Positions 12,782 to 56,974 of a stretch of 64,000 bases of DNA are shown in pieces. The notes beneath the pieces were generated by a model that saw only the letters and a program-made list of their open reading frames with translations, was not told where the DNA came from and did no database searches. The DNA comes from Dictyostelium discoideum (lineage: Eukaryota): the NCBI GenBank assembly GCA_000004695.1, contig CM000152.2, forward strand, positions 4,032,001-4,096,000. The letters run 5' to 3'. Position 1 is the stretch's first letter; every line of letters starts with the position of its first letter. Position numbers and translations under genes: made by a program.

Positions 12782-13952
12782 TAAAATATTTGTAGTAAGA
12801 CACAACTGTAATTACAATTGATATAAAAAATTAATTAAAAAAAAAAAATTAAAATTTTTTTTTTTTTTTTTAATTTTTAAATTTTTTTTTTAAAAAAAAA
12901 AAAGAAAAAAAAAAAAAAAAATTAAAAAAAGAATCAAATTTGGTGCACAATAGCAAAATGAAATTTTTATTTTTTAAAAAATTCCCTTGATAAATAAAAA
13001 AACCTAATTTTAGAATATTACTCATTTTTTTTTTATTTTTTTTATTTTTTTTATTTTTTTTTTATCGTGTTTGGAAAAACGACAATGAGGATGGTTTGTA
13101 ATCATACAAAATTCATTTTGGAGTTTCTTTGATTTCCCAATATATTGCCATAACCAACAGGAGTTTTCAAACATATAATATATTTTTTTTTTTTTTTTCC
13201 TAATCATTGTCTAATTAAAAAAAATAAAAATTCAATATTTATTTTTTTAATTTTTTTTTTTTTTGTTTGTTTTAAAATATAAATAAAAAAAAAAAAAACA
13301 AAAAAATTAAAAATTAAAAATTAAAAAATAAAAAAAAATAAATAAAATACCCAACAATTACCAAATAAAATTGGGTTTATTGTTGTTTATGCCAAAATTT
13401 TCTTTGTTGGGTATTTTATTTATTTTTTTTTATTTTTTTTTATTTTTTAATTTTTAATTTTTAATTTTTTTTTTTTATTTTTTTTTATTTATATTTTAAA
13501 ACAATTTGAAATCAAAATTTCTTGGTTATGTTTACCTTTGTGACAACAAAGTAAATTTCCCAATTATTTTTTATTTTTTATTTTTATATATTAAAACTAA
13601 CCTATAAAATAATTATTATTACAAATTTAGAGTTTTATTTTATAATTTAATAAAAAAATAATAATAATATAATAAAACAAAATAAAATTTTTAATATTTT
13701 TAGAATGTTTAAGTACTAATACGATCAATAAATTAAAGCCGTCATTTGTCTTTAAGAAAAAAAAAATTGAAAAAAAAAAAAAAATTGAAAAAAAATTTTT
13801 TTTGAGCCAATATAACGTTGAAAAAATATGCCAAAAAAAAAGTAGCTCACAAGAAAATTAAAAAAAAAAAAAAAAAAAAAAATTGGGAGCGGCCAAGTGA
13901 AAATTTTTGAAAATTTTTTTGTGTTCGTTTATTTCTCACAGTTTCATACACA

Positions 13953-14833: not shown

Positions 14834-18127
<3,294 letters not shown>

Positions 18128-18299
18128 CTTTTTTTTTTTTTTAAAATAAATAAATAAATAAAATAAAAAATTATAAAAAATAAACTATTAAAAAGAGTTT
18201 GGGTAAATAAAAAAAACAAAAAAAAAAAAATTGTGAATTATTATAATGCAAAAACAAAATTTGCAAAAAAAAAAAAAAAATTGTTTTTTTTGTTGGAAA

Positions 18300-18870
18300 T
18301 GGATCTTTTTGTGAATAATTGAATTAATTCTGAAAAAAAAAAGTTATTTTGAAAAAGATCGAGTATTCCCGGAAAAGATCAATCTTTTCGCGAAAAATTT
18401 TTCATTGGCCATATTATTTTTTTAATTTTAATTTTTTTCATTTATTCACAATTAAAATAAAAAATATAATAAATAAATAAATAAAATAAATAGTATGATT
18501 GACAAAAAAAAATCAAAAATACCGGGGCTCAAATAAAGGATTTATTTTTTATATGTAGTTTTTTTTTTTTTGAAGTTCCTTTTTTTTTTTGAAGTTCATT
18601 TTTTTTTATATTTTCTTTATTTCTCTATAAATACAACCAAATTTAATTCTACGATAGGCCTTAACAAATATTGTTTAATATTATTTAAAATTTTTGTTTT
18701 AAATAATGTGTTTTATTGAAAAAAAAAAAAAAAAAACATATGAAAAGTGAAAAATTTTTCAAAAAAAAATAAACTTTTTTCGAAATAACTGAATTTATTC
18801 CGGGACAACTCGATCTTTTTCAAAATAACTTTATTTATTCAGAATTAATTCAATTATCCACTGATAGGTC
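18300..18870. mobile_element. MITE-like non-autonomous DNA element (about 560 bp) with terminal inverted repeats of about 65 bp
   Basis: Left arm 18311-18377: GTGAATAATTGAATTAATTCTGAAAAAAAAAAGTTATTTTGAAAAAGATCGAGTATTCCCGGAA. The reverse complement of the right arm 18789-18861 reads GTGGATAATTGAATTAATTCTGAATAAATAAAGTTATTTTGAAAAAGATCGAGTTGTCCCGGAA, about 90% identical. The interior is AT-rich and non-coding, with internal TTCGCGAAAAATTTTT / GAAAAATTTTTC...TTTCGAAA sub-repeats. The element is absent from the equivalent spacer between SAP copies 2 and 3. Confidence 0.5.
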
Positions 18871-19225
18871 CATTGTAAAACAAAAAAAAAAATTTAACAA
18901 AAAAAAACAAAAATTTTTTTTTTTTTTTTCTTTGTTTTTTTTTTTTGCGGAAATTTATGACAGCAACACCCCTTTCCAAATTAAAAAAACAATAAAAATT
19001 TAAATAATTAAAAAAAAAAAAAAAAAATAAATTTAATCTGAAAAGTGTGATGGGTTTGAGGAGCTGCTTAGAAAATTTTCTTTTTAAATCCAGAAACAAG
19101 TTTCACAAGAATGTTAAAAAATCAGCATATAAATATATAAAATTAAATATAATAAATTTTATCCCCATTTTTTTTATTTTATTTACTTATTTTATTTTAT
19201 TTATTTATTTTTATTTATTTTTATT

Positions 19226-22087
19226 TTATTTATTATTAGAGGATTTAAATATTTTTGATCTTAAAACCTTTTCATTTTTTGGTGAAAAATCAATAAAATC
19301 AATTAGTAAATTTGATAATTGAAAATTTGAAGAGTTTATTGAATTTACAACCATATCACATAATAAATTCGATTGAAATAATGATGATTGATTTGTTTTT
19401 GTTCTCACTTTTAATAAATATTGACTATTTTTATTAGAAGATAATATATCTTGAAAAATTTGAATGAATCCTTTTCTAGAGGCCACACAAAGACAAGTAT
19501 AAAGATGATTGATTGTATTATCATTTAAATTTTCAATAAAATAATTAATAAATAACCCAAGATAATAACTTGAACATATGTTATATAAATAAGATTCTTG
19601 AGTGAAATTGGAGAAATATCCTGAATTAAAAATTTCAGGTATTTTATCAAAAAGATAAAAAATATCATCAACCCTATCTAAATAATAAAGACAAACAAAT
19701 AAAATTCTAGGTGAAATTGTAAAATCGAATGATTTTGTTTCACCAATAATAAATTGTCCAACTTCTTCACTATTCGTTGTTGTTGTTGTAGTTGTTGTTG
19801 ATATTGTTGAGGTGAGTGGAATAAAATCATCATAATAATATCCGTGTACATATGAAAAATTGAATTTAACTTTAACTTGATATAACTTTGATTCAATTGA
19901 TTCTTTTGAAATATTATTAAAAATTAATTTGACAGAGTTTGACATTTTATTTGGTGGTAGTACACTATCAATAATTTCAGAAAATCTAAATGGTTGTTTA
20001 AATTGTTCATTTGATAAAATGTTATTGATTAAAAACTCATTACCATTTTCTAAAGACCAACCAAATATTATTAACAATTTGTTATAATAATAACCACTAT
20101 CATTAAAAAATGAATATAATAAAGGTTTTGAAATTGCTCTTTTTAATTGATCCAATAATATATTTATATTATATTTTTTTTCATTAATTTTATTTACATT
20201 TGTAAACCAATCATAATAATATACTATATTTAATCTTAACCTTTTCTCAATACTTTCCATTAATTTTTCATAATGATCAATAATATTAACATGACCATTA
20301 TACCAATTTTGATTTTGATCATCAAATAAAGTAGTTTCATTTCTATAATTTTCAAAAAAAAAGTCAACAATTTCATTTTTATTAATATATTGAAAATTGG
20401 TTGATATAATTTCAGAGATACTTGGAAATTTTGTTTTTGAATCATAAACAAGTTGTAACTTTTTTATTGTTTTAATTAGATGATCAATTAATTCTGTATC
20501 GTTAATTGAAAATACAACTTTACAAAATGAATTAAAACTTCTTAAATTAAAATTATATATACACCCAATATTTTGAAATGGAACTCCATTTTCAATATCT
20601 AAAATATTTGATACTAATTCTAATATTTGATTTTTTTCAAGATTTTGATCCATTAAAATACTTTTAAAAAATATTAAATAATGAGTATAATTCTTACCGC
20701 AAAATATTTCATATAATTGAATAAGACTCTTTTCTTTTTTAAAATATAAATAATAATGAATTGGTTTCATTAAATTTCTATTATAAAGATTTCCTTCTTT
20801 AATAATTTTAAAAAATAAATAAATTGATTTATAATATTTTTTAATAATATCTTTTATATCACCGCTATTATTATTGTTTGTTATTAATATTGGAGTGGTG
20901 GTGGTGGTGGTAGTGGTTGTTGTTGTTGTTGTTGTTGTTGTTTGATTCAATAGATTTTTAATTGTTGAATTTAATTGGTCATTTGTAAAATGAATTGATT
21001 CAATTTCGCTTAATTCCAATATTAATTGATTTAATTTTTCAATATAATCTTTATCTGAATTCAATTTTTGTTGTTTTTGTTCTTCCTCTTCTTGTTGATG
21101 TATTTCTTGTATTTTTTTAAAGTTTGTAGGATCGACTAATAATTTATATGATTTTATAAGTCTTTTCAATTTACAATCAAACGATAGACTATCTGATAAA
21201 TCAATATTAGAAAATCGTTGTTTAATATGTGATGTTGGAATAGCATTAATTGATTTTAAATAATTGTAAATCTTTAAATTATTATATGTAACTACATTAA
21301 AGAATGATGGATTAATATGCATTTCTATACTTTTTTTTAAAACATCTGAATTTATTTTAAAAAATTTAATAAATTGATCTAATGCTACTAAATTTTCATT
21401 TAAAATCATTCTTTGAATCCATAGATCAATATTTTCATCAAATTGGAAAATTAATGATTTTATTGATTGTGTTGTTGTTGATGAGAATGCAGAAAATAAT
21501 GTATTATAAAATGAAATTGTTTCATTATCTTTTTTTTTTAATGTTTTAATAATATTTAAAATATCATTTACACTTCTGATAATTTGATGATTAATATTTC
21601 CTTTAATATTATCTTTTATTATTTCTAATGAATTACTATAACTTTTTAAAAAGTTTTCATTTATACCAATTAAATCATGATAACCAAATTGTTTACTTTT
21701 AAAATTTGAAAATATATTTTTAAAAATGATCATATTTCTAAAAGCTTTCCAAAAATAAATTTCAAGTTGATCAACATCTTTAATTAGTAATACATATCGT
21801 TGCTGTTGAGGTTGTTGAGGTTGTTGTTGAAGTTGATTGGTTGTACTATTTATTAAATCAGATTTAACTTTTTTTGATAAAAAATAACCTTCAATTCTTT
21901 TATAAATTTCTTGTTTTTTTCCAATAATTGGTAAACCTAATGATTTTGCAATTGTTTGTAATTCTTTGCTTCTTATTGAATCATAATTAATATCTTCTTT
22001 AAACTTTTTGTATGTTAATAAACCATCATTATCATCATTATTATCATTTTCTTGATTTTCAATTTCTTTTCTTTTATTATTAACCAT
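19226..22087 (-). CDS. SAP-domain protein, tandem-family copy 2 (953 aa), without the poly-Gln expansion
   Basis: An intronless ORF collinear with copy 1. Where copy 1 carries its roughly 165-codon Q tract, this copy has only QQEEEEQKQQK. The 3' flank is also duplicated (TTATCCCCATT...; compare 19140-19225, 22440-22497 and 14720-14833). Confidence 0.7.
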   Translation of the reverse strand: MVNNKRKEIENQENDNNDDNDGLLTYKKFKEDINYDSIRSKELQTIAKSLGLPIIGKKQEIYKRIEGYFLSKKVKSDLINSTTNQLQQQPQQPQQQRYVLLIKDVDQLEIYFWKAFRNMIIFKNIFSNFKSKQFGYHDLIGINENFLKSYSNSLEIIKDNIKGNINHQIIRSVNDILNIIKTLKKKDNETISFYNTLFSAFSSTTTQSIKSLIFQFDENIDLWIQRMILNENLVALDQFIKFFKINSDVLKKSIEMHINPSFFNVVTYNNLKIYNYLKSINAIPTSHIKQRFSNIDLSDSLSFDCKLKRLIKSYKLLVDPTNFKKIQEIHQQEEEEQKQQKLNSDKDYIEKLNQLILELSEIESIHFTNDQLNSTIKNLLNQTTTTTTTTTTTTTTTTPILITNNNNSGDIKDIIKKYYKSIYLFFKIIKEGNLYNRNLMKPIHYYLYFKKEKSLIQLYEIFCGKNYTHYLIFFKSILMDQNLEKNQILELVSNILDIENGVPFQNIGCIYNFNLRSFNSFCKVVFSINDTELIDHLIKTIKKLQLVYDSKTKFPSISEIISTNFQYINKNEIVDFFFENYRNETTLFDDQNQNWYNGHVNIIDHYEKLMESIEKRLRLNIVYYYDWFTNVNKINEKKYNINILLDQLKRAISKPLLYSFFNDSGYYYNKLLIIFGWSLENGNEFLINNILSNEQFKQPFRFSEIIDSVLPPNKMSNSVKLIFNNISKESIESKLYQVKVKFNFSYVHGYYYDDFIPLTSTISTTTTTTTTNSEEVGQFIIGETKSFDFTISPRILFVCLYYLDRVDDIFYLFDKIPEIFNSGYFSNFTQESYLYNICSSYYLGLFINYFIENLNDNTINHLYTCLCVASRKGFIQIFQDILSSNKNSQYLLKVRTKTNQSSLFQSNLLCDMVVNSINSSNFQLSNLLIDFIDFSPKNEKVLRSKIFKSSNNK

Positions 22088-22497
22088 CTTTTTTTTTTAA
22101 AATAAATAAATAAATAAACTATTAAAAAGTATGTAAAAAAAAGAATAAAAAAAAAAAAAAAAAAAAAAATCATGAAAATTAATTATTTTTAATAATAATT
22201 TTTTTTTTTTATTTTTTTTTTTATTTTTTTTTTTTTTATAAATCCCAACCAAATGTTTAGAATTTTTTGAAATACGACAACACCCTTTCCAAATTAAAAA
22301 AACAATAAAAGTAATATCTCAAAAAAAAAAAATATAATCTGAAAAGTGTGATGCGTTTGAGGGAGCCGTACAAAATTAAGCATAAAATTACTACACTTTA
22401 TTTTTAATTTTCATATCCAGAAACAAGTACACATGAACGTTAAACAATCAGCATATAAATAAATATTATAAATATTATCCCCATTATATTATTTATT

Positions 22498-25419
22498 TTA
22501 TTTATTTTTATTTATTTTTATTTTATTTATTAGATGAATTATTTTTGATTTTAAAACTTTTTCATTTTTTGGTGAAAAATCAATAAAATCAATTAGTAAA
22601 TTTGATAGTTGAAAATTTGAAGAATCTATTGAATTTACAACGATATCATGTAGTAATTTCGATTGGAATAATGATGATTGATTTGTTTTTGTTCTCACTT
22701 TTAATAAATATTGACTATTTTGATTAGATGATAGAATGTTTTTGAAAATTTGAGTGAATCCTTTTTTAGATGCTACACAAAGACAAGTATAAAGATGATT
22801 GATTGTATTATCATTTAAATTTTCAATAAAATAATTAATAAATAATTCAAGATAATAACTTGAACATATATTATATAAATAAGATTCTTTAGTAAAATTT
22901 ATGAAATATCCTGAATTAAAAATTTCAGGTATTTTATCAAAAAGATAAAAAATATCATCAACCCTATCTAAATAATAAAGACAAACAAATAAAATTCTAG
23001 GTGAAATTATAAAATCAAATGATTCTGTTTTACCAATAATAAATTGTCCAACTTCTTCACTATTTGTTGTTGTTGTTGTTGTTGTTGTTGTTGGTAAATG
23101 AGTAAATGTTGAGGTGAGTTGAATAGAATTATCACCGTAATATCCATGAGAATAATTGAAATTACCTTTAACTTGATATAACTTTGATTCAATTGATTCT
23201 TTTGAAATATTATTAAAAATCAATTTAACAAGGTTTGGTATCTTATTTAATGGTTCACCACTTATAATTAGAGAAAATCTAAATGGTTGTTTAAATTGTT
23301 GATTTGATAAAAAGTAATTGATTAAAACTTCATTACCATTTTCTAAAGACCAACCAAATATTTTTATCAAAAAATTATAACTATAATTAGTATTAAAAAA
23401 AAAAGAATAAAATAAAGGTTTTGAAATTGCTCTTTTTAGTAGATCCAAAAATATATTTATATTATTTTTTTCATTATTTTCATCATTTCTGAACCAATTA
23501 TAATAATATATTAAACATAATCTTAACCTTCTACCAATACTCTCCATTATTTTTTCATAATGATCAATAATATTAATATTATTCCAATTTTGATTGTAGT
23601 CATCGAATAAAGTAGTTTCATTTCTATAATTTTCAAAAAAAAGGTCAATTATTTCATTTTTATTAATATATCGAAAATTGGTTGATATAATTTCAGAGAT
23701 TCTTGGGAATTGTGTTTTTGAATATTTAACAAGTTGTAATTTTTGCATTGTTTTAAATAGATGGTCAATTAATTCTGTATCGTTAATTGAAAATACAACT
23801 TTACAAAATGAATTAAAACTTTCAATATTATATCCATACCCGTTCTTTTGAAATGAAATTCCATTTTAAATATCCAAAATATTTGATACTAATTCTAATC
23901 TTTGATTTTTTTCAAGATTTTGATCCACTAAAATACCTTTAAAAAATATTAAATAATCATTATTCTTTTTATGAAAGTTACAAAATATTTCATATAATTG
24001 ACTAACACCCTTTTCTTTTTTAAAATATAAATAATAATGAATTGGTTTCATTAAATTTCCATTACAAAGATTTCCAACTCTAATAATTTTAAAAAATAAA
24101 TAAATTGATTTATAATATTTTTTAATAATATCTTTTATATCACCGCTATTATTATTGTTTGTTATTAATATTGGAGTGTTGGTAGTAGTATTAGTGGTGG
24201 TGGTAGTGGTAGTGGTGGTGGTTGTTTGATTTAATAGATTTTTAATTGTTGAATTTAATTGATCATTTGTAAAATGACTTAGTTCAATTTCATTTAATTC
24301 CAATGTTAATTGATTTAATTTTTCAATGTGTTCTTTTTTATTTGAGTGTAGATTCAATTTTTGTTCTTGTTGTTCTTGTTTATGTTGTTGTAGTTGTTTT
24401 TGATGTATTTCTTGTATTTCTTTTAAGTTTGTAGGATCGACTAATAATTTATATGATTTTATAAGTCTTTTAAATTTATAATCAAATGATAGACTATCTG
24501 ATAAATCAATATTAGAAAATCGTTGTTTAATATGTGATGTTGGAATAGCATTAATTGATTTTAAATAATTGTAAATCTTTAAATTATTATATGTAACTAC
24601 ATTAAAGAATGATGGATTAATATGCATTTCTATACTTTTTTTTAAAACATCTGAATTTATTTTAAAAAATTTAATAAATTGATCTAATGCTACTAAATTT
24701 TCATTTAAAATCATTCTTTGAATCCATAGATCAATATTTTCATCAAATTGAAAAAGTAATGATTTTATTGGTTGTATGATTGTTGTTGTTGAGTTGGATA
24801 TTGATGATGAATATGCTGAGAATAATGTAGTATAAAATGAAATTGTTTCATTATCTTTTTTTTTTAATGTTTTAATAATATTTACAATATCATTTGTATT
24901 TCTAATTATTTGATGATTAATATTTCCTTTAATATTATCTTTTATTATTTCTAATGAATTACTATAACTTTTTAAAAAGTTTTCATTTATACCAATTAAA
25001 TCATGATAACCAAATTGTTTACTTTTAAAATTTGAAAATATATTTTTAAATATTATCATATTTCTAAAAGCTTTCCAAAAATAAATTTCAAGTTGATCAA
25101 CATCTTTAATTAGTAATACATATTGTTTTTGTTGAGGTTGTTGTTGAGGTTGTTGTTAAGGTTGATTGGTTGTACTATTTGTTAAATCATTTTTAAATTT
25201 TTTTGATAAAAAATAACCTTCAACTCTTTTATAAATTTCTTGTTTTTTCCCAATAATTGGTAAACCTAATGAGTTTGCAATTGTTTGTAATTCTTTGCTT
25301 CTTATTGAATCATAATTAATATCTTCTTTAAACTTTTTGTATGTTAATAAACCATCATTATCATCATCATTATCATTTTCTTGATTTTCAATCTCTTTTC
25401 TTTTATTATTATTAACCAT
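22498..25419 (-). pseudogene. SAP-domain family copy 3, disrupted by in-frame stop codons
   Basis: The unit is collinear with copies 1 and 2 and starts at ATG 25417-25419. Its reading frame is split into three ORFs (25156-25518, 23866-25059, 22498-23748). A TAA (plus TTA at about 25167-25169) replaces a copy-2 GAA in the QQ-rich linker. A second TAA (plus TTA around 23870-23878) lies at the position that reads GGAACTCCATTTTCAATATC in copy 2. Confidence 0.6.
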
Positions 25420-25464
25420 CTTTTTTTTTTTTAAACTGTAAAAAAGTGTGCAGGAGCAAAAAAA

Positions 25465-25500
<36 letters not shown>

Positions 25501-25792
25501 TAAAAAATAAAAAGGCAAATTATTTTTTTTTTTTTGAAAAATATGACGTCAACATGCTCGGTAAACTAGAAAAAAAAGAAAAAAAAAAAACAATTGACCA
25601 AATATAGTATCTTGGACCATTTTCAAAAATCTTTTTTTAGAATTCCACCTACCTAAAAATTCAAGATAATATAATATAAAATAAAATAAAATATAATAAA
25701 ACAAAATAAAATAATATAAAACAATCTTTTTTTTTTTTTTTTTTTTTTCTTCTCCCCCAATACATATGTTTTGTTATAAAATTTATAGTTTA

Positions 25793-35960: not shown

Positions 35961-36033
35961 GGGGATGTAGCTCAGATGGTAGAGCGCTCGCTTAGCATGC
36001 GAGAGGTAAAGGGATCGATACCCTTCTTCTCCA
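35961..36033 (+). tRNA. tRNA-Ala (anticodon AGC)
   Basis: The sequence GGGGATGTAGCTCAGATGGTAGAGCGCTCGCTTAGCATGCGAGAGGTAAAGGGATCGATACCCTTCTTCTCCA folds as a cloverleaf: acceptor GGGGATG/CTTCTCC with the G3:U70 alanine identity pair, D-arm GCTC-AGATGGTA-GAGC, anticodon stem CTCGC/GCGAG with loop TTAGCAT (anticodon AGC), and T-arm AAGGG-ATCGATA-CCCTT. It is near-identical to metazoan tRNA-Ala-AGC through position 43. The T-loop ATCGATA and a U6:U67 mismatch are atypical, but both recur in the second tRNA-Ala at 58199-58294. Confidence 0.8.
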
Positions 36034-47564: not shown

Positions 47565-48314
47565 TTAAAATGGTAAGTTACCAAGAACTTTTGGTAATTG
47601 GACTGATGATTTTAATTTTAATTGTTTAGAATTTGGTTGATTTAAACAAATACTTGGTAATTGGAAGTATGCTGAGTCAGCAGATGGATTGTAATAGTAA
47701 TAGTTTGTTAATGTATATCCACTTGGTGTATTGTTGATATTTTCGGTTGAGCCAGAGATTAATGAACAATCTGATTTATCTACAAGGAGACCGACATTTG
47801 AAGAGTTACCTAAATCACCTGGATTTACTGAAAACATATCACATTGAACAGTACCTAATTCGAAATCACCAACATACTTTAATCCTTCAAGTGATGGAGT
47901 AGAGTATGATAATGGTTGTTGGAAACAATAATCAGTACCATTTACATTAACACTAACGTATTGTGTACTATTACTACCGAAACCCCAGAGATTACCTTTT
48001 GTTTTTGTATTACCATTATCGAATAAAAAGTCAACATACAATTGTTCACCAGCCAAATCAATATTCATAAAACCAGATTCAAGGAAAGATGATTGTTGGA
48101 TACCACTTGGAGTTGGATAATTTCCATTAAAACTTAACATAACATAAGAACTTGAATAACCTGTTGGAAGTTGGCCACTTGAAGTAAAACATTGTTGTTG
48201 ACCTACTTGATTTTCAATTTTTGAGTAATCAATTTTATTTGTACCCATACTAAATGATTTACAACAATTTAATGCAACTGTCATTACTAAAATTAAAGAT
48301 AATAATAATTTCAT
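47565..48314 (-). CDS. Secreted Cys-containing protein of unknown function, array copy A (249 aa)
   Basis: An intronless ORF with a signal peptide MKLLLSLILVMTVALNCC, several N-x-S/T sequons and six Cys in the mature part. It is 95-99% identical to copies at 50329-51078 and 53896-54645 and about 85% identical to 56225-56974. Confidence 0.6.
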   Translation of the reverse strand: MKLLLSLILVMTVALNCCKSFSMGTNKIDYSKIENQVGQQQCFTSSGQLPTGYSSSYVMLSFNGNYPTPSGIQQSSFLESGFMNIDLAGEQLYVDFLFDNGNTKTKGNLWGFGSNSTQYVSVNVNGTDYCFQQPLSYSTPSLEGLKYVGDFELGTVQCDMFSVNPGDLGNSSNVGLLVDKSDCSLISGSTENINNTPSGYTLTNYYYYNPSADSAYFQLPSICLNQPNSKQLKLKSSVQLPKVLGNLPF

Positions 48315-49405
48315 TCTTTAATTTTTTTATTTATTTATTTTATTTAATTTTTAAAATTTTTTATTTGTTTTATTTATTTATTTTAAATTATTTGTTTAAT
48401 AAAAAAAAAAAAAAAAAAAAATTATTTATACTAATTTTTTTTTATGGGTATCCGATAATATTTTAAAAAATATATTCGAAAATATTTACCTATAAATTAT
48501 CCTGGAAAATGATATATTTTATTGCCTGGTCATGATGTCAAGAGGACTTGCAAAAATTGATTTATTTGAATTATCTCATTTATTTACAAAATATCGGATC
48601 AAAAGTTTTTTCGAAAATTTAAATAAAAACCGTAATAGAATTATTTTTATATATCAAAGGAATATTTTTATGGTAAATAAAAAAAATTAAAAAGGAATGT
48701 CAGAGAACCTATCTCAGAAAAATGATTTTTTTATTTGGATATTTTATAAAAAAAAAAAAATATCTCAAAATATTTTTTTAAAAAAAAAACCCAGGCAGTG
48801 ATATCATAATCTTAACAAAAGATTGTTAGCCTGGTACTAAATTTATTGAAAAATAAATAAATAAAAAAAAATAGAATTTTAAATGTTTACAATTATTTAT
48901 TTGTAGTTCGAGAAAAAAAAAAAAAAAAAAAAATTAATTTAAATCATCAAAAAGTGTTTGTAACTCTAAAAAAATAATTAAATAAAAATAAATAAAGTAA
49001 AATATAAAAAAAATAAAAAAAAAATTAAAACACCTTCCAAAAAAATTAAAGTTAAAACACCTTCAGTTAATTAATTTTAATAATAATAATTAAAAAAAAA
49101 AAAAAGACGAAAAAGACAAAAAAAAAAAAAAAAAAAAAAATGAAAACATTTGGGTAAAAAAAAAAATATCCCAAAAATAAATTGGAATTCTGGAATAAGA
49201 TTTTTTTTTATTTTTTATTTTTTATTTTTTTTATTTTTTTTTATAATTAGCAATACCAGAACGTACAGGGAATTCATGAATAAGATAATGATTTTTTATA
49301 AAGACTCATTTTTATTTTTTTTATTCATTTTAAAAAAAAAATAAAAAAAAACAAAACAAATATAAACAAATATAAAACTAATAAAAATAACTAATATTAA
49401 ATAAA

Positions 49406-49981
49406 ATGTCAAGCATTTCAAGAAAAGTTTAAAATGTTGCAAAAGGTTATAAAACTAAAGATGGCGCAGGTGTATCACTTTTACGTGTTATTGGTGGACC
49501 TATCCCATCAAAATCAGTTGATCCATTCTTAATGTTAGATGCATTTAAATCAGAGAATCCAAATGATTATATTGCAGGTTTCCCATCACATCCACATAGA
49601 GGTCAACAAACTTTAACCTATATGATAGATGGTATAATGGAGCACAAAGATAACAAAGGAAATAAAGGATTACTAAAACCTGGTATGGTTCAAGTTATGA
49701 ATGCTGCAAGAGGTGAAGGTAAATTCGGTCCAGAAGGTTATGAAAAAGTTGTAGCTGATCAACATATTGGTGTTTTAGAGAATAAAGATAGGGTCACAAT
49801 TAATGATAATGAAATTACACCAAATAAATTAGATGGAATCGCAGGTGAAAATGGTGTTAGATTCCTCTTTTTATCAGCAAAACCATTACGTGAACCAATC
49901 GTTCAACATGGTCCATTCGTTATGAATACACAAAAAGAAATTCAACAAGCTTTTTTTGACTACGAAATGGGTAGATTTTAA
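49406..49981 (+). pseudogene. Pirin pseudogene (array unit 2): early nonsense codon plus internal deletion
   Basis: ATG at 49406. Codon 9 is TAA (AAAGTTTAAAATG here, against AAAGTTTCAAATG in copy 1). The exon-1 end is fused directly to the middle of exon 2 (…NAARG|EGKFGPEGYEK…). This removes the intron and about 115 codons, including the MPKQVEG..FWLNL cupin segment. Confidence 0.65.
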
Positions 49982-50328
49982 TTAATCACCTTTTTTATAA
50001 AAAAAAAAATAATAATAATAAAGATTAAAAAAAAAAATTGTATTATAATTAATGTAATATGGTTATTAGATTATTAACCACCCAATCAAACAGACATTAT
50101 ACTGTCGAATTAAAAAATTATAAAAATAAAAATAATAAAATAAAATAAATAAAATCTTTTAAATTCAATGAAATTAAAACATAAAAAGCAATAATATGAT
50201 TGTTATATTTTTGTATATATGGTTATTAAAAAAAAAGTTTTATATTTTTATTTTAATATTGTTTTTTATGTTTAAAAAAAAAAGTTAAGTGAATCTTTTT
50301 TTGATCGATCGAGAAAAAAAAAATTTAA

Positions 50329-51078
50329 TTAAAATGGTAAGTTACCAAGAACTTTTGGTAATTGGACTGATGATTTTAATTTTAATTGTTTTGAATTTGG
50401 TGGATTTAAACAAATACTTGGTAATTGGAAGTATGCTGAATCTGCAGATGGATTGTAATAGTAATAGTTTGTTAATGTATATCCACTTGGTGTATTGTTG
50501 ATATTTTCGGTTGAGCCAGAGATTAATGAACAATCTGATTTATCTACAAGGAGACCGACATTTGAAGAGTTACCTAAATCACCTGGATTTACTGAAAACA
50601 TATCACATTGAACAGTACCTAATTCGAAATCACCGACATACTTTAATACTTCAAGTGATGGAGTAGAGTATGATAATGGTTGTTGGAAACAATAATCAGT
50701 ACCATTTACATTAACACTAACGTATTGTGTACTATTACTACCGAAACCCCAGAGATTACCTTTTGTTTTTGTATTACCATTATCGAATAAAAAGTCAACA
50801 TACAATTGTCCACCGGCCAAATCGATATTCATAAAACCAGATTCAAGGAAAGATGATTGTTGAATACCACTTGGAGTTGGATAATTTCCATTAAAACTTA
50901 ACATAACATATGAACTTGAATAACCTGTTGGGAGTTGGCCACTTGAAGTAAAACATTGTTGTTGACCTACTTGATTTTCAATTTTTGAGTAATCAATTTT
51001 ATTTGTACCCATACTAAATGATTTACAACAATTTAATGCAATTGTCATTACTAAAATTAAAGAAAATAATAATTTCAT
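50329..51078 (-). CDS. Secreted Cys-containing protein, array copy B (249 aa)
   Basis: An intact paralogue of 47565-48314, with a few substitutions. Confidence 0.6.
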   Translation of the reverse strand: MKLLFSLILVMTIALNCCKSFSMGTNKIDYSKIENQVGQQQCFTSSGQLPTGYSSSYVMLSFNGNYPTPSGIQQSSFLESGFMNIDLAGGQLYVDFLFDNGNTKTKGNLWGFGSNSTQYVSVNVNGTDYCFQQPLSYSTPSLEVLKYVGDFELGTVQCDMFSVNPGDLGNSSNVGLLVDKSDCSLISGSTENINNTPSGYTLTNYYYYNPSADSAYFQLPSICLNPPNSKQLKLKSSVQLPKVLGNLPF

Positions 51079-51975
51079 TTTTTTTTTTTTTTTTTTATTT
51101 ATTAATTTTTATTACTTTAAATTTGTTTATTTTAAATTATATAATTAAAAAAAAAAAAAAGAAAAAAATTATTTATACTAATTTTTTTTATAATTATCCT
51201 ATAACATTTTAAAAAATAAATTCAAAAATATTAACCAATAAATTATCCTGGAAAATAATATTTTTTGGCCTGGTTATGATGTAAATTGAAGTTTCTAAAA
51301 TTGATTTATTTGAATTATCTCATTTATTTAAAAATGTCGGACTCAAATTTTCCCAAATTAAATAAAAAACCGTAAATTATTTTTTTTTATTAAAGAATTT
51401 TTTTAGGGTAATTAAAAAGATTAAAATAGAAGGTCAGAGAATCTATCTCAGAAAAATAATCTCGATAAAAGAGTGTTGACCTGGTATTAAATTAATTTTA
51501 ATAATTAAAAAAAAAAAAAAAAAACAGAATTACAAATGATTTTTTATTTTTAGTGATTTATTCCTAATTTTAGTTTTTGCGGTAAAAAAAAAAAAATTAA
51601 TTTAAATTATCACCTGAAAAAAATTAAAATAAAATATAAAAAAATATAAAAATTAAAAATAAAGATAAAACCCCTTATGTTTTTATTCAAACTAATAATA
51701 GATTAAAAAAAAAAAAAAAATTATAACATCCAAACCAACATAAAAATAAATTGAAATTCTGTATCAAGATTTTTTTTTTTTTTTTTTAATTTTTTATTTT
51801 TTTTTTATTTTTTTTTTTTTTTATGATTAGCAATACCAGAATGTACAGAGAATTCTTGAATAAGAAAATGATTTTTTATAAAGACTCATTTTAATTTTTT
51901 TTTTTTCATTTTAAAAAAAATAATAATAAAAACAAAACAAATATAAAACAAATAAACTAACTAATATTAAATAAA

Positions 51976-52613
51976 ATGTCGAGTGTTTCAAGAAAAGTTT
52001 CAAACGTCGCTAATGGTTATAAAACTAAAGATGGTGCAGGTGTATCACTATTACGTGTTATTGGTGAACCTATCCATCAAAATCAGTGGATCCATTCTTA
52101 ATGTTAGATGCATTTAAATCAGAGAATCTAAATGATTATATTGCAGGTTTCCCATCACATCCACATAGAGGTCAACAAACTTTAATCTATATGATTGATG
52201 GTATAATGGAACACAAGATAACAAAGGAAATAAAGGATTACTAAAACCTGGTATGGTTCAAGTTATGAATGCTGCAAGAGGGTATGTTTTAATTATTATT
52301 AAAAAATATAAAAAAAAAAAAAAATAAAATAAAATAAATCTAATAAATACTAATAATAATTCAAAATAAAAATATATAGTATTATTCATTCAGAAATGCC
52401 AAAACAAGTTGAAGGTAAAATGTTTGGATCAATTTTGGTTAAATTTAGCAGCAGTCGATAAAATGTTAGATCCATGGTTGAAAATGGCGTTAGATTCTTA
52501 TTTTTATCAGCAAAACTATTACATGAACCTATTGTTCAACATGGTCCATTCGTTATGAATACACAAAAAGAAATTCAACAAGCTTTTTATGATTACCAAA
52601 TGAGTAGATTTTA
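51976..52613 (+). pseudogene. Pirin pseudogene (array unit 3): frameshifts and large deletions
   Basis: ATG at 51976. There are single-base deletions relative to copy 1 (CCTATCCATCAAAATCAGTGGATCC; CACAAGATAAC). A large deletion joins …AAVDKM(L)DPW directly to ENGVRFLFLSAK. Confidence 0.65.
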
Positions 52614-53049
52614 ATTAATCACCTTTTTTATAAAAAAAAAAAAAATAAATAAATAAAAAAAAAAAAAAAATAAGAAACATAAAAAAAAAAAAATGGTAAT
52701 TATATTATAGTTAAAAAATTAAAAAAAAAATATAGTAACAAAATATTAGTTTAAAAAAAAAAAAAGTTTTGTTTATTTCTTTGTTTGAAATTTGGTTTAA
52801 TATTATTTTCCAAATATTTTTGACAAATAAAAAAAATAAAAGGTAATAGATATTTTTTGGAATCTATATTTATGTATGTTTTTTTAGTTTTTAGAAAAAT
52901 AAGATACATTTTATTTATTGATAATATATTGAATACTAATTTTTCGTGTGTATTAATATTAAATTATATTAAAATAAAAATTTTAAATCATTAAAAAAAA
53001 GTGAAAAAAGATAATACAAAAACAGAAACCCTAAGATTTAATTGTTTTG

Positions 53050-53754
53050 GGTATATAGTCTGGTGAATCAGGATTTAAAAATAAATCAATCTCAGAAATA
53101 GTTAAAGAAATTTATGAAAATATCGATGGAATGACAATGAGTGGTAAAAAAGATGGAAATTCAAACATTGGTGGTTTCATTGCAACAAGACATAAGGAAT
53201 GGTATGATAAAGCAAGTATTGTTAATATCATTTATGAAGGATATGTAACATATGGTGGTATGACAGGTAGAGATATGGGTGCAATGGCTCAAGGTTTAAA
53301 TGAATCAATGGATTTTGAATATTTAAAATCAAGATGTAAACAAGTTGAATATCTTGCAAATAAACTTGATAAATATGGTGTTCCATTTCAAAGACCATTT
53401 GGAGAACATGCGTTATTCATTGATGCAAAGAAAATACTTGGTCATATTCCAATTGATGATTTAATTGCTCAAACATTAGCTATTGAAATTTATTTAGAAG
53501 GAGGTGTAGGAAGTGTTGAAATTGGCACCCTTTTAGCCGATAGAGATCCAATTACTCAAGAAAACTGATATCCTCAATTAGAGTTTGTAAGACTAGCAAT
53601 TCCAAGAAGATCATATACAAATAATCATATGAAAGTAGTAGCTGTAACACTTAAAAATGTTTATGATAAAAGATTAAAAGTTAAAAGTGGTTATAAAATT
53701 ATTCATGAAGCACCAATTCTCAGACATTTTACTGTTGAATTAGAAAAGTTATAA
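53050..53754 (+). pseudogene. Relic C-terminal fragment of a tryptophanase / tyrosine phenol-lyase family (beta-eliminating lyase) gene, with an internal TGA
   Basis: The translation GESGFKNKSISEIVKEIYENIDGMTMSGKKDGNSNIGGFIATRHKEW...[166 protein letters not shown] is collinear with the C-terminal about 230 aa of bacterial TnaA (…AMSAKKDAMVPMGG...[21 protein letters not shown]...QYL...[50 protein letters not shown]...LLRLTIPRATYTQTHMDFI...YEPKVLRHFTAKL). The PLP-lysine (SAKKD, compare SGKKD) is retained. An in-frame TGA (53566-53568) is AGA in the unit-4 copy. The fragment begins at an intron-acceptor-like tatatag with no upstream exons found. Confidence 0.6.
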
Positions 53755-53895
53755 ATAAAAAATTTATCAAATAAAATAAATAAATAAAATCTATGAAATT
53801 AAAACATATCTATGATTTTTTATAATTATTTTTTTATTTTATTTTAATTAATATGTCTTTTTTTTTTTTTCAATTTGAAAAAAAAAAAAAAAAAA

Positions 53896-54645
53896 TTAAA
53901 AAGGTAAGTTTCCAAGAACTTTTGGTAATTGGACTGATGATTTTAATTTTAATTGTTTAGAATTTGGTGGATTTAAACAAATACTTGGTAATTGGAAGTA
54001 TGCTGAATCAGCATATGGATTGTAATAGTAATAGTTTGTTAGTGTATATCCACTTGGTGTATTGTTGATATTTTCAGTTGAGCCAGAGATTAATGAACAA
54101 TCTGATTTATCTACAAGGAGACCGACATTTGAAGAGTTACCTAAATCACCTGGATTTACTGAAAACATATCACATTGAACAGTACCTAATTCGAAATCAC
54201 CAACATACTTTAATCCTTCAAGTGATGGAGTAGAGTATGATAATGGTTGTTGGAAACAATAATCAGTACCATTTACATTAACACTAACGTATTGTGTACT
54301 ATTACTACCGAAACCCCAGAGATTACCTTTTGTTTTTGTATTACCATTATCGAATAAAAAGTCAACATACAATTGTTGACCAACCAAATCGATATTCATA
54401 AAACCAGATTCAAGGAAAGATGATTGTTGAATACCACTTGGAGTTGGATAATTTCCATTAAAACTTAACATAACATATGAACTTGAATAACCTGTTGGGA
54501 GTTGGCCACTTGAAGTAAAACATTGTTGTTGACCTACTTGATTTTCAATTTTTGAGTAATCAATTTTATTTGTACCCATACTAAATGATTTACAACAATT
54601 TAATGCAATTGTCATTACTAAAATTAAAGAAAATAATAATTTCAT
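53896..54645 (-). CDS. Secreted Cys-containing protein, array copy C (249 aa)
   Basis: An intact paralogue. Confidence 0.6.
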   Translation of the reverse strand: MKLLFSLILVMTIALNCCKSFSMGTNKIDYSKIENQVGQQQCFTSSGQLPTGYSSSYVMLSFNGNYPTPSGIQQSSFLESGFMNIDLVGQQLYVDFLFDNGNTKTKGNLWGFGSNSTQYVSVNVNGTDYCFQQPLSYSTPSLEGLKYVGDFELGTVQCDMFSVNPGDLGNSSNVGLLVDKSDCSLISGSTENINNTPSGYTLTNYYYYNPYADSAYFQLPSICLNPPNSKQLKLKSSVQLPKVLGNLPF

Positions 54646-54676
54646 TTTTTATTTTTTTATTTATTTATTTATTTTT

Positions 54677-54723
<47 letters not shown>

Positions 54724-55323
54724 TTAATTTATTTATTTATTTAATTATTTATTTATTTATTTTAAATTATTAAAATTATAAAAAAAAAAAAAAAAAAAAA
54801 TTATTTATACTTTTTTTTTTTTTAAGTATCCGATAATATTTTAAAAAATAAATTCAAAAATATTAAGCAATTGATTATCCTGAAAATATTTTTTTTGCCT
54901 GGTTATGATGTCATGTGGTTTCAAAAATTGATTTATTTGAAATATCATATTTATTTATGAAATTTCAAATTTTCTAGAGAAATTAAAAAAAAAACCGTAA
55001 AGTATTTATTTTTTTTTCTTATTAGACGAATATTTTTATAGTAAATAAAAAAAAGATTAAAAAAGAATGTTAAAGAATCTCAGAAAAAACATTTTTTTAT
55101 TTGGATATTTTTTAAAAATAATATCTGAAAATATTTTTAAAAAAAAAAAAACCCAGGCAGTGATATCATAATCTCAATAAAAGATTGTTAACCTGGTACT
55201 AAATTTATTTTTATTTTATTAAATTTTTTATTTTATAATAAAAAATAAAAAAAATAGGATTTTAAATGGTTTTTGTTATTGTTATTTTAGTGGTTTATTT
55301 GTAATTTGAGTTTTTGAGGGGAT

Positions 55324-55362
<39 letters not shown>

Positions 55363-55716
55363 ATCACAAAGTGAGTAATCCAAACTCTGAAAAATAAAAT
55401 GAATATAAAAAAAAATAAAAAATTAAAGATAAAACCCCACAGGTCAAAAAAAAAAAAAAAGAAAATATTTAAATAAATATAAAAATTAAGGGTGGTTGGA
55501 TGTAAAAATTTCAGCATTAAAGTGGTGAAAAGTAATTTTGTGGGTTTGTCGCCTTTTTATTTTTTTATTTTATATGCGACTTAATAAAAATAAAAAATGA
55601 AATTTAAAATGATTTGTTTTTATTTTTTTTATTTTTTTTATTTTTTTTTTTTTTTTAATTTTTAATTTTTAATTTTTTATTTTTTTAATTTTTTTTTTTA
55701 TAATTAGCAATACCAG

Positions 55717-56069
55717 TTGGAGAACATGCGTTATTCATTGATGCAAAGAAAATACTTGGTCATATTCCAATTGATGATTTAATTGCTCAAACATTAGCTA
55801 TTGAAATTTATTTAGAAGGAGGTGTAAGAGGTGTTGAAATAGGTACCCTTTTAGCTGATAGAGATCCAATTACTCACGAAAATAGATATCCTCAATTAGA
55901 GTTTGTAAGACTAGCAATTCCAAGAAGATCATATACAAATAATCATATGAAAGCCGTAGCTGTAACACTTAAAAATGTATATGATAAAAGATTTGAAATT
56001 AAAAGTGGTTATAAAATTATTCATGAAGCACCAATTCTAAGACATTTTATGTTGAATTAGAAAAGTTAT
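55717..56069 (+). pseudogene. Shorter relic of the same tryptophanase-like gene (array unit 4), fused directly to the conserved pirin-upstream block
   Basis: The junction reads TAATTAGCAATACCAG|TTGGAGAACATGCG. The fragment encodes [112 protein letters not shown]. It has no start codon and no pirin. Confidence 0.55.
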
Positions 56070-56224
56070 AACTAATAATAAAATAAAATAAAAAACAAAA
56101 GAAAATAAAATTAAACTAAATCAATGAAATTAAAATATGAATAAGATTGTTTTTTATTTTATTTTAATATTAATTAATTTGAGAATCTTTTTTTTTTTTT
56201 CAATTTAAAAAAAAAAAAAATTAA

Positions 56225-56974
56225 TTAAAATGGTAAGTTTCCAAGAACTTTTGGTAATTGGACTGATGATTTTAATTTTAATTGTTTAGAATTTGGTGGA
56301 TTTAAACAAATACTTGGTAATTGGAAGTATGCTGAATCAGCAGATGGGTTGTAATAGTAATAGTTTGTTAATGAATATCCACTTGGTGTGTTGTTAATAT
56401 TTTCAGTTGAAGCAGAGATTAATGAACAATCTGATTTATCTACAAGGAGGACAAGATTTGTAGAGTTAGCTAAACTACTTGGACTACCTGCAAACATATC
56501 ACATTGAACAGTACCTAATTCGAAATCAGTAATATAGTTTAATCCTTCGATTGCTGGAACTGAGTATGATAATGGTTGTTGGAAACAATAATCAGTACCA
56601 TTTACATTAACACTAACGTATTGTGTACTATTACTACCGAAACCCCAGAGATTACCTTTTGTTTTTGTATTACCATTATCGAATAAAAAGTCAACATACA
56701 ATTGTTGACCAACCAAATCGATATTCATAAAACCAGATTCAAGGAAAGATGATTGTTGAATACCACTTGGAGTTGGATGGTTTCCATTAAAACTTATCAT
56801 AACATAAGAACTTGAATAACCTGTTGGGAGTTGGCCACTTGAAGTAAAACATTGTTGTTGACCTACTTGATTTTCAATTTTTGAGTAATCAATTTTATTT
56901 GTACCCATATTAAATGATTTACAACAATTTAATGCAATTGTCATTACTAAAATTAAAGAAAATAATAATTTCAT
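56225..56974 (-). CDS. Secreted Cys-containing protein, array copy D (249 aa), the most divergent copy
   Basis: The ORF is intact and the signal peptide conserved. There are about 30 amino-acid substitutions clustered around positions 140-200. Confidence 0.6.
   Translation of the reverse strand: MKLLFSLILVMTIALNCCKSFNMGTNKIDYSKIENQVGQQQCFTSSGQLPTGYSSSYVMISFNGNHPTPSGIQQSSFLESGFMNIDLVGQQLYVDFLFDNGNTKTKGNLWGFGSNSTQYVSVNVNGTDYCFQQPLSYSVPAIEGLNYITDFELGTVQCDMFAGSPSSLANSTNLVLLVDKSDCSLISASTENINNTPSGYSLTNYYYYNPSADSAYFQLPSICLNPPNSKQLKLKSSVQLPKVLGNLPF

Follow-up and report, generated by a model that had tools for sequence, protein, structure and literature searches.

Several described classes of mobile DNA resemble the inverted-repeat block that we report here, which sits between copies 1 and 2 of a tandem array of SAP-domain genes in a 64-kb window of the Dictyostelium discoideum genome (the whole stretch of DNA that was analysed; all positions are given in the numbering of this window). 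MITEs such as Stowaway and Tourist share with the block a size below 0.8 kb, an AT-rich and non-coding sequence and terminal inverted repeats (TIRs), as well as a location next to a gene, here near a TATA-like box, and absence from related empty sites. Foldback elements share arms of more than 100 nt, short internal palindromes, A/T-rich outer parts and the inclusion of the whole element in a single predicted hairpin; our search of the literature returned no description of a foldback-type family in Dictyostelium. The putative DNA transposons DDT-A, DDT-B, DDT-S, thug-S and thug-T (Glockner et al. 2001) have their host in common with the block. Among them, DDT-S is short and non-autonomous, with a size similar to that of the block. 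To our knowledge, DDT and thug are the only non-Tdd DNA-transposon classes that have been described in Dictyostelium. We set these elements beside the block by description only, and the literature searched on Dictyostelium MITEs, thug and DDT-S yielded no structural description. The D. discoideum elements Tdd-4 and Tdd-5 (Ginger2/TDD) have TIRs of 260 and 297 bp, TGTNR termini and a 5-bp target-site duplication, and Ginger2 elements favour AT-rich RTATAY targets (PMC2836005). An intron of thug-S hosts miRNAs (PMC4894637), and since an intron means a gene model, thug-S is apparently not a simple MITE devoid of ORFs.

The block lies in the spacer that separates SAP copy 1 (14834–18127, minus strand; an ORF of 1097 aa with a long polyQ tract and with Pfam SAP, PF02037, and PF18953 above the cut-off) from SAP copy 2 (19226–22087, minus strand; an ORF of 953 aa with Pfam SAP above the curated cut-off). 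This spacer (18128–19225) measures 1098 bp, whereas the one between copies 2 and 3 (22088–22497) measures 410 bp. A TATA-like box on the minus strand (18238–18247, ATTATAATAA, followed by a T run) is conserved in the corresponding spacer of a divergent isolate (locus L004, see below), where 32 of the 33 positions of 18216–18248 are identical, and is presumed from its sequence to be the core promoter of copy 1. The insertion starts immediately distal to this box, with the copy 1 start codon 121 bp from the point at which homology to related spacers breaks off and 151 bp from the nearer inverted-repeat arm; on the other side, about 280–330 bp separate the block's right end from the stop codon of copy 2. 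In UniRef, one paralogue of this SAP-domain family is named UPF0746 protein, and a protein search with a segment free of low complexity returned one protein only. The exact copy 1 protein is present in GCA_054883475.1 (CM142509.1), where the block falls by arithmetic at approximately 4,124,654–4,125,271, and the neighbouring pseudouridine synthase, identical to AX4 XP_640817, is found in CM142509.1 as well. These identities, together with that of a copy 3 ORF to an AX4 protein (see below), place the window on chromosome 3 of an AX2/AX4-type (NC4-derived) strain of D. discoideum.

Annotation of the SAP family at this locus is inconsistent. Copy 3 (22498–25518) is split into three ORFs (22498–23748, 23866–25059 and 25156–25518), the middle one of which (397 aa) is identical to AX4 DDB_G0281303 and is annotated there as a separate protein, whereas the gene model of GCA_054883475.1 fuses copies 3 and 2 into a product of 1854 aa.

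The core arms of the block, 18311–18374 and the reverse complement of 18798–18861, agree at 59 of 64 positions (92%, ungapped), close to the approximately 90% identity given by the sequence-only reading. That reading had paired the blocks 18311–18377 and 18789–18861, which do match in inverted orientation but not ungapped to their full length, two 3-nt gaps being needed past CCCGG, and had placed the ends of the element at 18311 and 18861. Self-BLAST instead delimits a left arm at 18278–18400 and a right arm at 18771–18895 (82.4% identity over 125 nt, E = 2.5e-29), the inverted similarity thus running outward to at least 18278 and 18895, with exact termini undefined. A repeat search recovered the same pair as the longest inverted repeat of the window (125 nt, 78% identity ungapped, 369 nt apart). 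Two perfect blocks, ATAATTGAATTAATTCTGAA and AAAGTTATTTTGAAAAAGATCGAGT, are common to both arms. Counts of k-mers also single out these arms: the 22-mer GTTATTTTGAAAAAGATCGAGT has exactly two perfect occurrences in the 64 kb, one per arm, where none is expected from 100 shuffles, and it remains restricted to the two arms when up to three mismatches are allowed (0.00 expected), as does the 21-mer GATAATTGAATTAATTCTGAA (0.08 expected). When the window was scanned exhaustively for 64-mers that recur in inverted orientation within 1.7 kb and match at 56 or more of 64 positions, four loci emerged; apart from the present one, they have a G+C content of 0–3%. With the low-complexity filter on, the arm pair far outscores any other close inverted pair, and it is the only close inverted repeat of the window that is not of low complexity.

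The nested inverted sub-repeats noticed earlier are indeed present (TTCGCGAAAAATTTTTC at 18387–18403, GAAAAATTTTTC at 18749–18760 and TTTCGAAA at about 18778–18785) and form a degenerate inner continuation of the arms, with indels. The description of a GC-containing TIR core likewise holds, with a G+C content of 25–28% in the core arms compared to 15% for the interior and 17% for either spacer; the window as a whole has about 20% throughout. When 18270–18900 (631 nt) was folded as single-stranded DNA, a single long hairpin of −117.9 kcal/mol was predicted, compared to −67.7 ± 5.4 kcal/mol for shuffled sequences (z = −9.3). It is extremely unlikely that this inverted repeat is a fold-back chimera created in a long-read assembly, such as the recent one from which the window was taken to come (bioRxiv 10.1101/2025.08.01.668227), because such artefacts are near-perfect palindromes, whereas the arms seen here show 18% divergence with indels and enclose a unique interior, and because the neighbouring genes are unbroken and encode proteins identical to those of AX4.

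The left arm also contains the perfect palindrome TTCCCGGAA (18366–18374), which is of the TTCN3GAA form and has a degenerate counterpart, GTCCCGGAA, in the right arm. We take this form to match the vertebrate STAT (GAS) site.

Between the arms lies a unique AT-rich interior of 370 bp (18401–18770), delimited from the sequence, the repeat search and the ORF list. As the sequence-only reading had stated, it is non-coding: the longest ORF in the block has 49 aa, every listed ORF has a non-ATG start, and the block as a whole, at 0.6–0.7 kb, has no coding capacity. Five ORF translations from the spacer had no match in the protein collection, a BLASTN search of PLSDB in distant mode gave no plasmid or vector similarity, and a tRNA search found none in the block, the only tRNA of the window being at 35961. 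The interior carries a directly repeated element, a T run and then GAAGTTC, in two copies (18559–18599) and a motif resembling a TATA box, TATAAATA, at 18626–18633; the repeats sit approximately 30–60 bp upstream of this motif.

We considered whether the interior could be native spacer left between two separate small insertions, a notion prompted by the likeness of TATAAATACAACCAAAT to TATAAATCCCAACCAAAT of the copy 2–3 spacer. It was rejected, since the best local alignments of the interior to five empty spacers, including this lead, are equalled by 64–81% of random AT-rich segments. With the interior not being native spacer, arms and interior together make up one foreign block of approximately 620–700 bp.

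Comparison loci were obtained through a protein search. Two of them, L004 (GCA_054859355.1) and L005 (GCA_054859385.1), are the orthologous 23-kb loci of two divergent D. discoideum isolates; L015 (GCA_054859235.1) is the orthologous locus of the sister species 'D. cf. discoideum', and L014 is a paralogous array on the same chromosome as the window, 300 kb off. A preprint reports ten Dictyostelium isolates assembled from long reads; the strains described comprise the laboratory strain AX2-214, the diverged discoideum-clade isolates CR116C and OT3A and the possible sister species M4B and S6B (bioRxiv 10.1101/2025.08.01.668227). Flanking single-copy genes are approximately 93% identical to those of the window in L004 and L005, and 83–89% identical in L015. 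The gene copies C, B and A of L004 and L005 correspond to copies 3, 2 and 1 of the window, and their A–B spacer, orthologous to the one that holds the block, measures only about 326 bp compared to 1098 bp.

When the window spacer was compared with these loci by BLAST, the native stretch 18956–19057 alone was recovered, the alignable part of the spacer being 83–86% identical between lineages. The arm cores matched nothing above the low-complexity background in L004, L005, L014 and L015, and neither arms nor interior were found in the A–B and B–C spacers of L004 and L005, in the L015 spacer or in the copy 2–3 spacer of the window. For the last of these, self-BLAST and k-mer counts agree with the earlier observation that it lacks the element. 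On the copy-1 side, sequence homologous to the empty sites reaches up to 18248/18249, and on the copy-2 side it breaks off at about 18893–18950, as judged by eye and from alignments; the empty alleles come from lineages 7–15% diverged and give no base-by-base comparison or precise empty site.

Two histories could produce this difference between orthologous and paralogous spacers. At a divergence of 7–15%, the block might be ancestral spacer that was deleted in the other lineages and in the paralogous spacers, and inverted repeats are unstable, long hairpin-forming ones being prone to deletion. This history would need several independent and complete losses, given that the block is missing from every one of the spacers just listed, and we consider it very unlikely. 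With absence from two isolates, the sister species and the paralogous spacers, parsimony favours a single gain by the NC4 lineage, and the sequence comparison supports the block being a lineage-specific insertion with TIR architecture. Whichever way it originated, the block accounts for the unequal spacers of the tandem array; the earlier proposal that it explains the length of this spacer stands in that the insertion makes up most of the excess over 410 bp, but it does not make up all of it.

Other differences between these loci were seen. A 136-nt stretch just past the copy 2 stop codon (19062–19197), common to the copy 2–3 spacer, is missing from the A–B spacers of L004 and L005, meaning that the spacers differ beyond the inverted-repeat block. 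The window has three SAP copies and L015 has two; in L004 and L005, three complete copies are accompanied by fragments. L014 is a second array of the family, with four genes and spacers of 0.39, 0.74 and 1.1 kb. Copy 1 has 1097 aa, with a very long polyQ tract, in the window compared to 941–975 aa elsewhere. In L015, a 102-nt inverted repeat (17703–17804 and 21846–21947, 92% identity) has arms 4 kb apart that enclose called genes, one of them AMPK beta-subunit-like.

The ends of the block are blurred, the inverted similarity fading into A/T runs. Because both ends lie in such runs, no target-site duplication can be called: a boundary scan returned 405 boundary pairs that are flanked by direct repeats of 5 nt or more, none of them distinguishable from chance. 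Among these candidates, the exact 11-nt repeat AAAAAAAAAAT (A10T; 18271–18281, plus strand, with its partner at 18883–18893) carries no statistical weight; it would bound an element at 18282–18882 with 5'-TG...CA-3' ends (TGTTTT...AAAACA). When the arms are aligned, these two ends do not fall in register. On the copy-1 side, an uncertain outer extension at 18249–18277 (GCAAAAACAAAATTTGC followed by A16) is extra compared to the empty alleles and may, from its sequence, be an inverted copy of the opposite flank. On the copy-2 side, an uncertain outer zone at 18896–18950 (AACA9CA5 followed by T16CTTTGT13GC, delimited by eye and from alignments) is in part similar to native flanking sequence in the empty alleles (TTTGT8GTTTT) and in part pairs in inverted orientation with 18249–18295. 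The outer inverted similarity has p values of approximately 0.0005–0.05 against random AT-rich segments, varying with the side that is randomised.

This similarity, if real, would point to an inverted duplication that includes native sequence, which is not predicted for a clean MITE insertion, and blurred ends, perhaps with a copy of the native flank, are not expected of a clean cut-and-paste insertion. The main rival reading is a one-off event, in which foreign DNA would have been caught at a break in the spacer and duplicated in inverted orientation through template switching or fold-back repair. The outer flanks (A16 and TTGT8GTT), inverted at both ends and also like the native flank of the empty allele, are in its favour, as is the outcome of the boundary scan. 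We regard such an event as possible but doubtful, and we hold the same view of its further steps, namely that some native flank was taken along and that the arms decayed afterwards. A foreign donor would still be needed, as neither arm has a homologue in the empty alleles, and the outer similarity is of borderline significance and lies in low-complexity DNA. Moreover, the 18% divergence of the arms equals the whole neutral divergence of the lineages, so that a perfect inverted duplication would have had to arise at about the time when the other isolates split off in order to gather this divergence and its indels. For a block gained after a split of 7–15% divergence, we infer that TIRs which were imperfect from the start fit arms of 82% identity with indels better than a young perfect duplication does.

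The number of copies bears on the same question. Neither 86.8 kb of the same genome (window and L014) nor 67.8 kb from the three related genomes contained a further copy of the block, which again favours a one-off event. Searches with 20- and 22-mers of the arms in collections without Dictyostelium DNA gave one match in metagenomes, located in a bacterial coding region, eight chance 20-mer matches in prokaryote genomes and no match in viral contigs. No transposase ORF was seen among those window ORFs of at least 150 aa that were scanned, and we know of no autonomous partner. The block is solitary and lies in gene-dense DNA. Transposons of Dictyostelium reportedly prefer to insert where elements of the same kind are already clustered, and the solitary block therefore counts against a transposon reading; in this it differs from the thug and DDT families, which are said to cluster in this way.

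Set against the described families, the block departs from MITEs in that its inverted repeats are far longer and less sharply bounded than typical TIRs of 10–40 nt and in that a target-site duplication is undemonstrable in ends made of A/T runs, and from foldback elements in that its arms have no clear tandem subrepeat organisation. Like Tdd-4 and Tdd-5 it has long TIRs; it sits beside TTATAAT, and one candidate pair of its ends reads 5'-TG...CA-3', but it carries no integrase and its in-register ends are not both TGTNR: the arms end in TGTTG (18291) and TGTTT (reverse complement from 18882), flanked by TTTTT and AAAAA. No 5-bp direct repeat was present at any in-register end pair, and membership of Ginger2/TDD was rejected on the termini and the 5-bp target-site duplication.

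From these features, the block is probably a low-copy MITE- or foldback-like element, and it is a candidate for mobility only. We give an even chance to the more definite reading in which approximately 18278–18895 (with limits at 18249 and 18950) would be a small, non-coding, non-autonomous DNA element of the MITE or foldback type. For the original proposal of a non-autonomous transposon, this means that insertion, a size below 0.7 kb, absence of coding sequence and inverted repeats were all borne out, but neither a target-site duplication nor a second copy was found in the DNA searched. Such an element would have inserted into the A/T-rich spacer between SAP copies 2 and 1 in the lineage of the NC4-derived laboratory strains, at a point directly upstream of the copy 1 TATA-like box. 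Transposition would have brought it there, through a transposase provided in trans that would bind the conserved G+C-containing blocks of the arms, and it would now be a passive passenger. Its possible effects would include separation of the copy 1 core promoter from upstream sequence, formation of a hairpin or cruciform and, if transcribed, of dsRNA.

A functional role would be compatible with an origin as a transposon and equally with a one-off event. The block could be a hairpin-RNA locus, that is, a small-RNA precursor, or a cis-regulatory module of copy 1, a reading that draws on structure and motifs only (the palindrome TTCCCGGAA, the T-run and GAAGTTC repeats and the TATA box) and that we judge unlikely. 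The long and stable predicted hairpin, the perfectly conserved arm blocks of 20 and 25 nt, the CpG-containing palindromes TTCCCGGAA, TTCGCGAA and GAATTAATTC in the arms, and the interior T-run+G motifs with the TATA box are consistent with it. In Dictyostelium, pri-miRNA start sites are a G after T-rich sequence (Liao et al., PMC6161686), and multicopy miRNA loci occur within thug-S repeats (PMC6161686; PMC4894637). The criterion for a miRNA locus in this organism is the presence of small RNAs on both arms, with defined 5' ends and dependent on DrnB (PMC6161686). Against a functional unit, a stem of 125 bp with a loop of 370 nt is unlike the short miRNA hairpins of Dictyostelium, the block is not conserved in relatives, and an Rfam search of it gave no credible family, the best match (MIR1514) reaching 22 bits compared to a gathering threshold of 90 and lying outside the arms.

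A bolder reading joins these ideas: the block might be the first recognised copy of a recently active, uncatalogued MITE or foldback family, or a young hairpin-RNA gene by the SAP array, either of which, inserted directly upstream of the TATA box, would have rewired the expression of copy 1 in the laboratory lineage. We think this rather unlikely on the features described.

If the MITE- or foldback-like element is mobile, it would extend the short and old list of transposons known from Dictyostelium by one small non-autonomous DNA element and would mark a structural difference between NC4-derived strains and other isolates, right where the promoter of a fast-evolving SAP-domain (UPF0746) gene lies; should it stem from a one-off rearrangement, it is only a local curiosity. 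The 125-bp hairpin stem may disturb PCR, cloning and recombination, which matters for promoter constructs and knock-outs at this locus.

Two further features of the window were observed. A second intergenic inverted repeat that resembles a hairpin, at 13254–13517, has arms (13254–13347 and 13424–13517) that are 90% complementary over 94 nt; in addition, a perfect inner 18-mer pair, AAATAAAATACCCAACAA and TTGTTGGGTATTTTATTT, encloses a loop of approximately 48 nt. Its arms have a G+C content of about 3%, and its sequence is unrelated to the block at 18.3–18.9 kb. Conservation of the loop region, TACCAAATAAAATTGGGTTTATTGTT, at the corresponding position in L004 and L005 identifies this repeat as a native feature and not an insertion. 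Finally, the stretch 47565–56974 holds a tandem array of four ORFs of 249 aa, all on the minus strand; both of the two ORFs tested from this array contain the amoebozoan ependymin domain PF25544 (E about 1e-59).
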